A stretch of 39,868 nucleotides of DNA from contig JBDRCS010000011.1 of assembly GCA_043821615.1 (NCBI GenBank), forward strand, positions 1 through 39,868. The letters are read 5' to 3'. A program made the translations under genes and the position numbers. Positions 17,420-20,454 of the stretch are shown piece after piece. Each line of letters starts with the position of its first letter. Position 1 is the first letter of the stretch. Under the pieces are notes generated by a model. It made no database searches. It saw only the letters and a program-made list of their open reading frames with translations, and was not told the DNA's origin. Source of the stretch: Patescibacteria group bacterium. Its GTDB lineage: Bacteria; Patescibacteriota; Patescibacteriia; UBA9570; JAHJKD01.

Positions 17420-17550
17420 AATGGGGAGTCGCCATCCTTCTACGCCACTCGCTTACGCTCGGGCTTCGCAGGGATTAGCTCAGAATATTGAGCCCCAATT
17501 CCTTCGAAGCTCTAACGCAAGTTAGAGCGAAGTAGAATGGGGAGTCGCCA
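17420..17550 (+). repeat. 15-bp direct repeat of the tRNA-Gln 5' end flanking a ~100-bp hairpin-rich insert
   Basis: AATGGGGAGTCGCCA at 17420-17434 and 17536-17550; inner hairpins include GCTCTAAC-gcaa-GTTAGAGC. Confidence 0.75.
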
Positions 17551-17608
17551 AGTGGTAAGGCACACGGTTCTGGTCCGTGGATCGGGGGTTCGAATCCCTC
17601 CTCCCCAG
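17538..17608 (+). tRNA. tRNA-Gln(CUG)
   Basis: Acceptor TGGGGAG/CTCCCCA, anticodon arm CACGG-ttCTGgt-CCGTG, T-loop TTCGAAT; CCA not encoded. Confidence 0.95.
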
Positions 17609-17741: not shown

Positions 17742-17960
17742 ATCCAATTAGCTCTTTTTATTTTATTGGTGTGTTTTTTTATTAGTAGCTCAAAGCATAA
17801 AAAAGCTTGTTTTTATGTTGCGAGCTGCGAGTGATCAGGCACACTTTAAACTTGGAAGCTGTTTCCAAGAAGGCGTGTTTGACTTCGTTTCGCAAAGCGA
17901 TAGGCCGTAACTCAAGCTCCTGTGAGCAAGACAGGCGGTAAATCGCAATCGGAGGTTACC

Positions 17961-18518
17961 ATGGCCCGTGAGAAGTCCGAGTACTTGAGCGCGTTCGGCA
18001 TCGCGTTCAGGATCTTCAAGGCCGTTGCCGACGCCGTGCTGCGCGCTGGCGGCAATGACGAGGCCCTGCGCCTCGCCGAGAAGCCCGAGGTCGCGGACAA
18101 GCTCGCCGCGGTCCTCATGGCCGAGGCGAGCCAGAAGGCCGAGAAGCCCCAGCCCGACCTGGACGGCCTCTCCGAGGTGTTCGAGGTGAAGGTCAGGGGG
18201 CGCACGGTGAAGTGCGCGTGGATCCCACGGAACTACTTCTCGTCCGACCCCACCAACCAGGAGGTGATGGACGAGACCAGCCGCCGCCACCTTCGCTGCC
18301 CCAGCCGAGAAATCGCTGTGGCGGCCTTCGACCTCAAGAAGAGGGAAATGGCCGCGAACCCCAGCGTGGCCATCGATGGCCTGGTTCAGACCGGCGCGGA
18401 CGGCAACCAGATCGTCGGCTGCGTCAATGAGCGCGCCATTGGCCGCGACCTCGACCTCGACGGTCTGCAGGGCTACTGGTATCGGAGCTACCGCTTCCTG
18501 GTGGTTGTCAGCGAGTAG
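17961..18518 (+). CDS. DGR target (variable) protein, 185 aa, C-terminal VR
   Basis: GGAGG RBS at 17951 precedes ATG 17961 (the track's GTG 17922 is less likely); the last 46 codons are the VR; strongly GC-rich codon usage. Confidence 0.92.
   Translation: MAREKSEYLSAFGIAFRIFKAVADAVLRAGGNDEALRLAEKPEVADKLAAVLMAEASQKAEKPQPDLDGLSEVFEVKVRGRTVKCAWIPRNYFSSDPTNQEVMDETSRRHLRCPSREIAVAAFDLKKREMAANPSVAIDGLVQTGADGNQIVGCVNERAIGRDLDLDGLQGYWYRSYRFLVVVSE
18378..18516 (+). repeat. DGR variable region (VR)
   Basis: 139-bp ungapped match to 18929-19067 with 13 mismatches, each opposite an A in the TR. Confidence 0.97.
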
Positions 18519-18536
18519 TTTGGCTCTTGGGCCATT

Positions 18537-18567
18537 GGGCACTTGGACCTTTTTGGTCCTGGTGTCC
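18537..18567 (+). other. Hairpin just downstream of VR (candidate DGR homing cis element)
   Basis: Core GGACC-ttttt-GGTCC (18545-18559), extendable to GGGCAC/GTGTCC. Confidence 0.55.
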
Positions 18568-18928
18568 CTTGACCCTTGGCCCTCAAGTTGGCACAAAAGG
18601 TTTCTGCGGTGATACCTTCACAAAACTCACCGCACATTTCCAAAAAATATAATTAGCTTTGTATTGTTTGGAAATGTATAATATAATAATACTTGGATAG
18701 TAAGCGAATCAGCCCATGGTTACGACCATGGACGGTTGAATTCTAAATTTATCAAAAAACGAGAATCCTTTATAAGCCATGGCTTAGAGGAGGGAGTTAT
18801 TGTTAAATTTTTAAACTAAAACTACTCGGTGCCTTATACTGGTGGATTATTATATCCCGAATAAAATACAGCGCGAAGATATCACTTCAACGCGCAGTGC
18901 CTTTGATGGTATTTTGCACTAAGGTTCA

Positions 18929-19067
18929 GGCCTGGTTCAGACCGACGCGAACGGCAACCAGATCGTCGGCTACGTCAATGAGAACGCCAATGGCCGCAAC
19001 CTCAACCTCAACGATCTGCAGGACAACTGGAATCGGAGCTACCGCTTCCTGGTGGTTGTCAGCGAGT
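18929..19067 (+). repeat. DGR template repeat (TR)
   Basis: Adenine-rich copy of the VR: 10 AAC/AAT codons and 34 adenines in the VR reading frame. Confidence 0.97.
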
Positions 19068-19452
19068 GTTTTAGCCAGCCCCCAAGCATTTTTCCTGTTT
19101 CTTCCAAAGGCGAAGAAATGCGGGCATAAGCCTTGTGATCCAAGGCTTTTGCCTGCCAGGCGATTTGCAAGAAATATTTTAAAGCGTCGTGCTTAGTGAT
19201 GGCTTTTTGCACGGCGGCTAGTTTTTGCTTTTCATTGGCATAGGCAGAGTATAAGATGAGCTCCAAAGTTTCCGTGAACAGACTATCGATTTTCGCTCCT
19301 AATGTATAGCGCGATAATTTTTCCATTTGCCGCATGGCCAGATGCCATTGCAGATAGGCTTGCGTTATTTTCTCAAGGATCGGCAAATCATTTGTTTTGC
19401 CAGCTCCGTTGGGGGGGGGGATATTCCTTAATTGATTTTTTAGTGAATTCAT
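19039..19452 (-). CDS. avd: Avd-like four-helix-bundle accessory protein
   Basis: LPILEK..Y..WH, RYTLGAKID, LKYFLQIAW, LEETGKMLGGWLK match the Avd/four-helix-bundle pattern; lies between TR and RT. Confidence 0.9.
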   Translation of the reverse strand: MNSLKNQLRNIPPPNGAGKTNDLPILEKITQAYLQWHLAMRQMEKLSRYTLGAKIDSLFTETLELILYSAYANEKQKLAAVQKAITKHDALKYFLQIAWQAKALDHKAYARISSPLEETGKMLGGWLKHSLTTTRKR

Positions 19453-20454
19453 ATGAAAAAGTTTATTAAATCTTATGACGAATTGATTTCTATTGAAAAT
19501 TTATTATTGGCCTGGCAAGAATTTTTACGGGGTAAAAGGAGTAAGCCAGATGTGATAATATTCGCCAGAAATTTAATAACAAATATTTATCAGCTTGATA
19601 ACCAGCTCAAAAATGAGTCTTACCAACATGGCGGTTATCATCATTTTAATATCGCTGATCCCAAGCCAAGGCAAATCCATAAAGCTTCAGTCTACGACAG
19701 GTTACTACATCATGCTTTATATCGTCAACTTTATCCTTTTTACGATACTATATTCATCGCTGATTCTTTTTCCTGCCGTAAAGGCAAGGGCACCCACAAA
19801 GCCGGGAAACGGTTCAGAAAGATGCTTAGCCAGGTCGGTAAAAACAATACCAAAACCTGCTGGGTCCTTAAATGCGACATTAAGAAGTTTTTCGCCAGTA
19901 TTGACCAGAATATTCTAATGAATATTTTAAAACGGCGCCTGGAAGATAAGCGCTTGTTTAGTTTACTTGAGAATATTATTTATAGCTTTAAGATAGGAGG
20001 CAAAAATATTGGTTTGCCGCTTGGCAATCTGACTTCGCAATTGTTCGTTAATATCTATATGAACGAATTTGACCAGTTTATGAAGCACGAACTAAAAGCT
20101 AAATATTATCTTCGCTATGCTGATGATTTTGTTATTTTATCTTCAAGTCGCGAGGAGTTAATTAATCAAATACCTATAATTTCATACTTTTTAAAACAAA
20201 AATTAGCTCTCACTCTGCATCCGCGAAAAGTTAAAATCCGGCCTTTAGCTTCGGGAGTTGATTTTCTGGGCTGGATTTATTTTCCTCACCATAAAGTATT
20301 AAGAACCGCTTCAAAAAGACGTATGTTCCGCCGGATCATCGAACAACCAAATGAACAAGCCAGGCAATCTTACAAAGGCATGTTAAAACACGGTGATGCT
20401 AATAATTTAGAACAAGAATTTGATAATTTATATGGATTACTAAATCCTATCTAG
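19453..20454 (+). CDS. DGR reverse transcriptase
   Basis: KPRQIH, DRLLHHA, CDIKKFF, GLPLGNLTSQ (SQ motif typical of DGR RTs), YLRYADDF, GVDFLG; 333 aa, no endonuclease or maturase extension. Confidence 0.97.
   Translation: MKKFIKSYDELISIENLLLAWQEFLRGKRSKPDVIIFARNLITNIYQLDNQLKNESYQHGGYHHFNIADPKPRQIHKASVYDRLLHHALYRQLYPFYDTIFIADSFSCRKGKGTHKAGKRFRKMLSQVGKNNTKTCWVLKCDIKKFFASIDQNILMNILKRRLEDKRLFSLLENIIYSFKIGGKNIGLPLGNLTSQLFVNIYMNEFDQFMKHELKAKYYLRYADDFVILSSSREELINQIPIISYFLKQKLALTLHPRKVKIRPLASGVDFLGWIYFPHHKVLRTASKRRMFRRIIEQPNEQARQSYKGMLKHGDANNLEQEFDNLYGLLNPI

Follow-up and report, generated by a model that had tools for sequence, protein, structure and literature searches.

A hypervariable simple repeat in avd as a candidate switch of an inverted-avd diversity-generating retroelement in Patescibacteria

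We analyzed a 39,868-nt stretch of DNA (hereafter the window; contig JBDRCS010000011.1, positions 1 to 39,868 of the forward strand, assembly GCA_043821615.1, a Patescibacteria group bacterium) that carries a diversity-generating retroelement (DGR), and focused on a simple repeat near the start of its accessory gene avd as a candidate ON/OFF switch of mutagenesis. From left to right, the element comprises a target gene (17922-18518, plus strand; a GC-rich open reading frame (ORF) of 198 aa without a Pfam or NCBIfam family), whose 3' end is the variable repeat (VR; 18378-18516, plus strand, placed by its alignment to the template repeat), the template repeat (TR; 18929-19067, plus strand), avd (19039-19452, minus strand) and the reverse transcriptase (RT) gene (19453-20454, plus strand). 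The end of the VR coincides with the target stop codon. The VR/TR alignment spans 139 columns with 13 mismatches, all 13 at TR adenines, of which the last variable one is 19031; the TR RNA reads as plus-sense, because these adenines lie on the plus strand. The RT (333 aa) matched Pfam RVT_1 with 83.1 bits, and its closest solved relative was 8ub7_A (E = 3.1e-43, residues 8-328), from an entry titled as a DGR ribonucleoprotein. It carries YADD and LGNLTSQ, the latter conforming to the DGR RT signature [I/V/L]GxxxSQ (PMC7826257). With adenine-restricted mismatches, the signature motif and YxDD all present, the window holds what is, by its sequence, a complete DGR, and its RT is the single DGR RT in the 971,730-bp assembly.

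The minus-strand ORF between TR and RT, proposed as Avd in a preliminary description of this DNA, proved to be one. Its 137 aa (at the tract length found in the window) matched the Pfam bAvd profile (PF22296) over residues 25-129, about 19066-19380, with 43.3 bits against a cut-off of 40 (E = 5.7e-11). An AlphaFold model built with 61 aligned sequences (mean predicted local distance difference test score 91.6) is a four-helix bundle (helices 24-40, 45-71, 74-100 and 106-136), and it superposes on Bordetella phage Avd 4dwl with a template modelling score of 0.87 and a root-mean-square deviation of 1.6, also matching the Avd chains of the DGR ribonucleoprotein 8ub7/8ubb/8ube. The protein is predicted to be basic (isoelectric point 9.87). 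The whole NCBIfam profile DivGenRetAVD (NF033474, positions 1-104) aligned with 59.5 bits (E = 3.2e-16), under its curated cut-off of 80, so the ORF is classed from its sequence as a divergent member of that family. A search of the PDB with the single Avd sequence returned nothing relevant, and a profile search returned 4dwl_A alone, at E = 0.26.

To place the layout among relatives, we used the 80 best RT relatives in species-representative genomes, nearly all of them metagenome-assembled genomes of Patescibacteria, with 55-62% RT identity. Immediately upstream of RT, 75 of these 80 loci encode an Avd homologue on the minus strand, and the other five (L035, L036, L044, L061 and L069) have at most 88 nt of contig upstream of RT; relatives from metagenomes reached no more than 63% RT identity, with no same-species copy among them. 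Wu et al. 2018 define a B3 architecture, TR-(avd)-RT, in which avd occupies the reverse strand, and assign to it 90% of their 126 DGRs from the candidate phyla radiation (CPR) (PMC5758913). The novelty suggested for the layout therefore falls, since the arrangement is in print and general in our own survey, an outcome that the preliminary description had itself named as removing it, and the element appears to be an ordinary CPR-type DGR of B3 architecture: target with VR, TR, inverted avd and RT.

The packing of these parts is unusually tight in the window. The avd start (CAT, 19450-19452) and the RT start (ATG, 19453-19455) adjoin with zero spacing inside a perfect 10-nt palindrome, TTCATATGAA (19448-19457), and at the other end avd runs 29 bp (19039-19067) into the invariant 3' end of the TR, antisense to both TR and RT, with its stop TAG (CTA, 19039-19041) and its last 8-9 codons inside that end. 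Both observations, made at first sight of the DNA, agree with the sequence, the ORF list and the VR/TR alignment. Neither is beyond chance by itself: the overlap arises because the ORF simply continues to the first in-frame stop past the Avd core, and any two touching divergent ATGs create CATATG, here flanked by TT and AA because the second codons of avd and RT both start with AA. In the survey of avd orientation, spacing and overlap that had been suggested, inverted avd was general and overlap rare. Among the 61 relatives with a TR, the TR end and the avd stop are separated by a median of +19 nt, with a range of -29 to +48 (one row, L009, had a faulty TR start and a usable TR end), and overlap was found in four (L014, -2; L016, -1; L043, -2; L078, -24), with -29 in the window. 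Exact CATATG abutment recurs in L077 alone; L022, L049 and L074 have CATG overlaps, and in L041 the two starts are 1 nt apart. Most relatives place the avd ATG 15-21 nt into the RT coding sequence. On the sequences compared, tight convergent packing is thus the rule and true avd/TR overlap the exception. TR/VR homology in the window reaches about 30-50 nt further 3' than in relatives, up to the GAGT just before TGTTTTA, and covers the site where relatives have a hairpin and where the avd stop normally sits; the overlap is best read as an incidental shift of the TR boundary and not as a designed feature. The packing in general is head-to-head and tail-to-tail, and overlap and zero spacing are its local variants.

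More notable is a tract of ten G on the plus strand (19411-19420), read as C10 in avd codons 11-14, which is the longest G/C run of the 971,730-bp genome and, as shown below, varies in length. A C6-C11 tract or a dinucleotide repeat occupies this site in 72 of 74 loci of the genome set (L058 dropped as a duplicate) and in 46 of 55 metagenome loci (after removal of 14 near-identical duplicates). Dinucleotide repeats take the place of the C tract in six loci, those of the genome set being (GA)10 in L001, (CT)6 in L015, (CA)10 in L033 and (CA)8 in L040. The proline columns encoded by the tract use CCC in 70 of 73 and 66 of 74 sequences, while two other conserved proline columns have mixed third bases (G23/T12/C17/A23 and A25/G17/T15/C18). 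As judged from these alignments, the tract is kept as a repeat and not as proline.

Three observations indicate that avd starts before the tract and reads through it. First, an ATG-led open frame enters the tract from within 75 nt at every tract-bearing locus (72/72 and 46/46), compared with 2188 of 4074 control anchors (54%) taken in the antisense of the RT coding sequence. Second, in most cases a conserved RT histidine at residues 6-8 supplies this upstream ATG on its antisense strand, the codon being CAT in 61 of 62 sequences, against a ratio of CAT to CAC of 651:493 for histidines elsewhere in the same RTs and CAT in 28-46 of 70 sequences at five other conserved RT histidine columns; at loci without that histidine, the window included, the avd ATG lies between the tract and the RT start. 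Third, 25 of 74 loci have no in-frame ATG, GTG or TTG between the tract and Avd helix 1. The earlier suggestion that the avd promoter lies inside the RT gene holds provided that translation starts at 19452, and most relatives go further, with the avd ATG itself within RT codons 6-8; when synonymous-site conservation over RT codons 1-118 was examined as a trace of such a promoter, the histidine column alone stood out. One could instead suppose that the tract mainly controls RT, as a -35/-10 spacer of variable length or as an element of the RT 5' untranslated region, with the proline codons a by-product. A plus-strand promoter-like TTGCCA-17-GATATT (19397-19425) does hold the tract in its spacer, and about 20 relatives, counted by eye, share the order tract, TANNNT, 7 nt, ATG. 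The promoter scan, however, did not exceed chance (4 sites against 3.2 expected), and control of RT leaves unexplained both the antisense ATG with its CAT codon and the ATG-led frame found wherever there is a tract, which makes this account very improbable. As a separate observation on the RT start, nine relatives (L002, L003, L009, L020, L021, L042, L051, L054 and L065) have no ATG past the tract at the expected position, and their RT frame is open through the G tract (GGG); these may use a non-ATG RT start, or the tract may also lie within their RT coding sequence.

Tract length differs between otherwise like sequences. The locus is present in four independent sequencing runs, and contigs from three of them (X2, X3 and X5) show no other difference from the window over 19101-19900, with G9 in X3 and X5 and G8 in X2 against G10 in the window; in the fourth run, X4, the contigs end at 19399 and resume at 19453, that is, on either side of the tract. 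Among relatives, one G of the tract is the sole difference between L017 and L111 in 3262 bp, and the tracts of L028 and L105, which share 97.8% identity, show a 2-nt difference. An exact-pattern scan for both flanks of the tract in metagenome contigs gave no matches. In silico, C10 yields a 137-aa and C7 a 136-aa product, whereas C8, C9, C11 and C12 yield 20-29 aa (28 aa for C9, 20 aa for C8), so that the tract of the window is, by translation, in the ON frame. Across the genome set (n = 72), the ATG frame was in frame with the Avd core in 12 loci, at -1 in 22 and at +1 in 38, and the metagenome set (n = 46) gave 11, 13 and 22, respectively. A further G8/C8 tract, in L085 (own genome, contig C47, 42239-42246), joins minus-strand frames of 342 and 275 aa, the 342-aa frame opening with a signal-peptide-like sequence; this is possibly a second repeat-controlled gene of the same genome.

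Other features concern the RNA around the TR. A hairpin with TTTTGTTTT behind it begins 7-32 nt past the TR in 53 of 60 relatives, compared with 191 of 2273 control windows (8.4%), a comparison that is the actual test, the scan selecting hairpins by construction. The stems are 5-12 bp long with at least three G-C pairs, outer arms CTCYCC/GGRGAG and variable inner pairs. Consensus folding of a MAFFT alignment recovered four outer pairs only, stem and loop lengths being variable, and for this reason the claim rests on the per-locus scan against controls. The avd stop of the relatives lies in or beside this hairpin, whose 3' arm and T-run, read on the opposite strand, encode the conserved Avd tail K[QEK][NT][SP]P. 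The hairpin looks like an intrinsic terminator for the TR RNA. In the window, neither the terminator scan (0 sites) nor the per-locus scan found a post-TR hairpin or terminator-like site; by eye, a possible and weak degenerate remnant (CTTCCTG/CAGCGAG plus TGTTTTA, plus strand, 19045-19073) can be made out, its hairpin part at 19045-19066; the fold z is -0.29. The idea that one stretch of DNA serves as both protein and RNA survives in this form, the avd 3' end of relatives sharing its DNA with a terminator-like hairpin, and finds no support for antisense avd as a spacer RNA.

Upstream of the TR, a region of about 150 nt has a conserved structure in 58 relatives plus the window (59 sequences; L022, with a long insertion, and the near-identical L053 and L058 were left out of the alignment), in which 17 of 19 predicted pairs show compensatory changes, for example pair 91-227 (GC 26, AU 25, UA 3) and pair 98-133 (GC 32, CG 13, AU 7, UA 5). 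In the window this RT-16-like domain lies directly 5' of the TR (18797-18927, plus strand), and its long-range stem (18829-18840 with 18908-18919) ends 9 nt before the TR. Rfam RT-16 (RF03019) matched 18797-18927 over its full length with 24.7 bits, short of its gathering score of 50; searches of 16 relatives at gathering returned tRNAs alone, and those of 7 relatives at E up to 10 gave no RT-16 match either, only one weak RT-7 match, in L016. Weinberg et al. 2017 describe RNA motifs RT-1 to RT-19 near RT genes, with RT-10 in the TR-RT spacer of the Bordetella phage, and speculate that other RT motifs serve DGRs (PMC5737381). In that phage, Avd binds to the 140-nt spacer that follows the TR, and this spacer also provides the priming site, A56 (PMC7826257). 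The preliminary description proposed that the TR transcript continues through antisense avd, which would act as the priming spacer RNA, and that the avd and TR-RT transcripts could pair and so gate mutagenesis. The geometry fits, the interval from TR end to RT start being wholly antisense avd (385 nt in the window, 332-451 nt in relatives); read-through is possible in a window without a terminator-like site past the TR; the plus strand of 19060-19200 folds better than shuffled sequence (z = -2.95); and the phage precedent of a spacer that binds Avd and supplies the priming site points the same way. Synonymous-site conservation in avd, the check named for this proposal, gave it no support: across 75 Avd sequences the avd core is saturated at third codon positions (about 1.7-2.0 bits at four-fold and 1.0 bit at two-fold sites), the tract being the sole exception. 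With the hairpin and T-run shortly past the TR in most relatives and the covarying domain on its 5' side, we consider a functional antisense-avd RNA improbable. The domain corresponding to the 3' spacer of the Bordetella phage most likely sits 5' of the TR in the CPR clade, and the RNA partner of the TR would be mainly this covarying 5' domain rather than antisense avd.

Taken together, the observations are best explained, with somewhat better than even confidence, by a B3 DGR with an incidental TR overlap, a putative 5' RNA partner and an avd tract that would gate mutagenesis stochastically. In this scheme avd would be translated from the ATG at 19452 through a C10 tract prone to slipped-strand mispairing; C10 would give full-length Avd, C9 or C8 would give stubs of 28 or 20 aa, and tract length would set mutagenesis ON or OFF by gating complementary DNA (cDNA) synthesis. 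The last step draws on the Bordetella phage system, where Avd is needed together with RT for cDNA synthesis (PMC7826257). A switch by simple repeat fits the data better than the proposed switch by RNA pairing, for which we saw no support. The broader claim, that across the CPR clade a hypermutable avd tract past an RT-embedded antisense start is a master switch, mostly OFF with a minority ON, accompanied by an RNA domain 5' of the TR and a terminator in the avd 3' end, seems to us evenly poised between right and wrong.

Several points weigh against the proposed switch. Tract lengths come from assembled contigs, in which homopolymer errors are possible, and a TTG past the tract, at 19384-19386 of the window, could serve as the start of a 115-aa Avd. 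Pressed to its end, this would mean that nothing is regulated, the length differences being assembly errors and avd starting at a TTG or GTG past the tract; 30 of 74 loci indeed have TTG or ATG as the codon that aligns with 19384-19386. To this one can oppose the conservation of the repeat at the nucleotide level, the loci that lack any downstream start codon, the CAT bias of the RT histidine codon and the position of the sole L017/L111 difference within the tract, and of the accounts weighed here we give this one the least credence. A second group of points concerns the reading frame. Even when any ATG is counted, only 17 of 72 genome and 12 of 46 metagenome loci have one in frame with the Avd core, and the +1 configuration dominates. 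Moreover, the L053 and L042 groups, whose samples differ in the VR only (13 and 21-22 differences), sit in the +1 configuration, and these VR-only differences imply that their DGRs have been active. The +1 excess could mean ribosomal frameshifting or transcriptional slippage instead of an ON/OFF switch: the tract would act at the level of RNA or the ribosome, with constitutive low Avd made by +1/-1 frameshifting on CCC-C or by polymerase slippage, and its length would tune dosage. Runs of proline codons are known slippery or stalling sites. Still, the six loci with (GA), (CT) or (CA) repeats argue for a mechanism at the DNA level, as they suit DNA slippage and not tRNA slippage, and the length differences were observed directly in DNA. 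We regard this explanation of the tract as unlikely on the whole, although frameshifting on CCC-C or transcriptional slippage could contribute. Finally, without a terminator hairpin, the TR RNA of the window may read into antisense avd.

While the layout adds nothing to what is in print, these details bear on how DGRs function in the bacteria richest in them. The model built on the Bordetella phage, in which the RNA spacer follows the TR, appears not to be transferable unchanged to CPR DGRs, and the TR RNA, avd and RT probably form three transcription units of their own within overlapping DNA. A contingency-type repeat deciding whether the mutator runs may add a second stochastic layer over targeted mutagenesis. 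The findings also suggest that Avd is often mis-annotated as truncated or absent in these genomes. Literature searches for an avd tract, which covered listings and abstracts, found no paper that appears to describe one, and in the texts covered the repeat tract, the RT-embedded start codon, the terminator that relatives have within the avd 3' end, and the RNA domain 5' of the TR appear to be undescribed.

Further observations concern the target gene and its surroundings. The target gene is preceded, at a distance of about 310 nt, by a tRNA gene (17538-17608, Rfam 58.1 bits). The GC content of the target gene is 0.60-0.70 against about 0.35 in its flanks, and that of its last 450 nt is 0.67 compared with 0.36 for RT and 0.40 for the window; clade-wide, the 3' 450 nt of target genes have a median GC content of 0.59 against 0.38 for RT, with a difference of at least 0.10 in 51 of 58 loci. 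This high GC content creates a long spurious antisense ORF at 17835-18596. Just past the VR and the target stop, the region 18474-18600 has a fold z of -2.53 at this single locus, with a GGACC-TTTTT-GGTCC hairpin in a longer stem, which could be a target-site hairpin as in other DGRs or a terminator of the target gene. In runs X3 and X5, contigs with the VR flank as their upstream loose end differ from the TR at adenines including 18962, 18977 and 18978, positions at which the VR of the window equals the TR; the VR thus varies between samples of the same organism, which suggests that this DGR has been active in the past. In addition, a 142-nt contig over 18985-19126 (the 3' ends of TR and avd) in runs X2, X3 and X5 carries seven non-adenine differences (C>T, T>C, G>A and T>A) at 19015-19096, and could represent either a variant strain or another copy.

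Compared with known systems, the avd tract resembles simple sequence repeat contingency loci, of which poly-G/C tracts in the 5' coding regions of Campylobacter, Neisseria and Haemophilus genes are examples. As in those, the repeat lies just past the start codon within the 5' coding region, is conserved as a repeat, sets the frame and differs in length between otherwise identical genomes, as represented by their contigs. Here, by contrast, the controlled gene is part of a mutagenic retroelement and no surface antigen, and switching is predicted from the frame in silico. The RNA domain at 18797-18927 shares with RT-16 the CUAC..GG, AAUAAAAUACAG and GGUG blocks and the nested stems, at a score below threshold, and differs from RT-10, which lies 3' of the TR, in lying 5' of it. 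With the published B3 architecture (PMC5758913) the element has in common how TR, inverted avd and RT are ordered and oriented, as well as the Patescibacteria (CPR) host; the available text of that account makes no mention of avd/TR overlap, head-to-head starts, an avd tract, a post-TR hairpin or a 5' RNA domain. With the DGR of Bordetella phage BPP-1 (avd-TR-Sp-brt) it shares an RT homologous over its full length (8ub7_A), the Avd fold (4dwl), adenine-only mismatches and the [I/V/L]GxxxSQ motif, here LGNLTSQ. Unlike BPP-1, it has avd inverted between TR and RT in place of a non-coding 140-nt spacer, and its conserved structured RNA lies 5' of the TR, whereas that of BPP-1 lies 3'.

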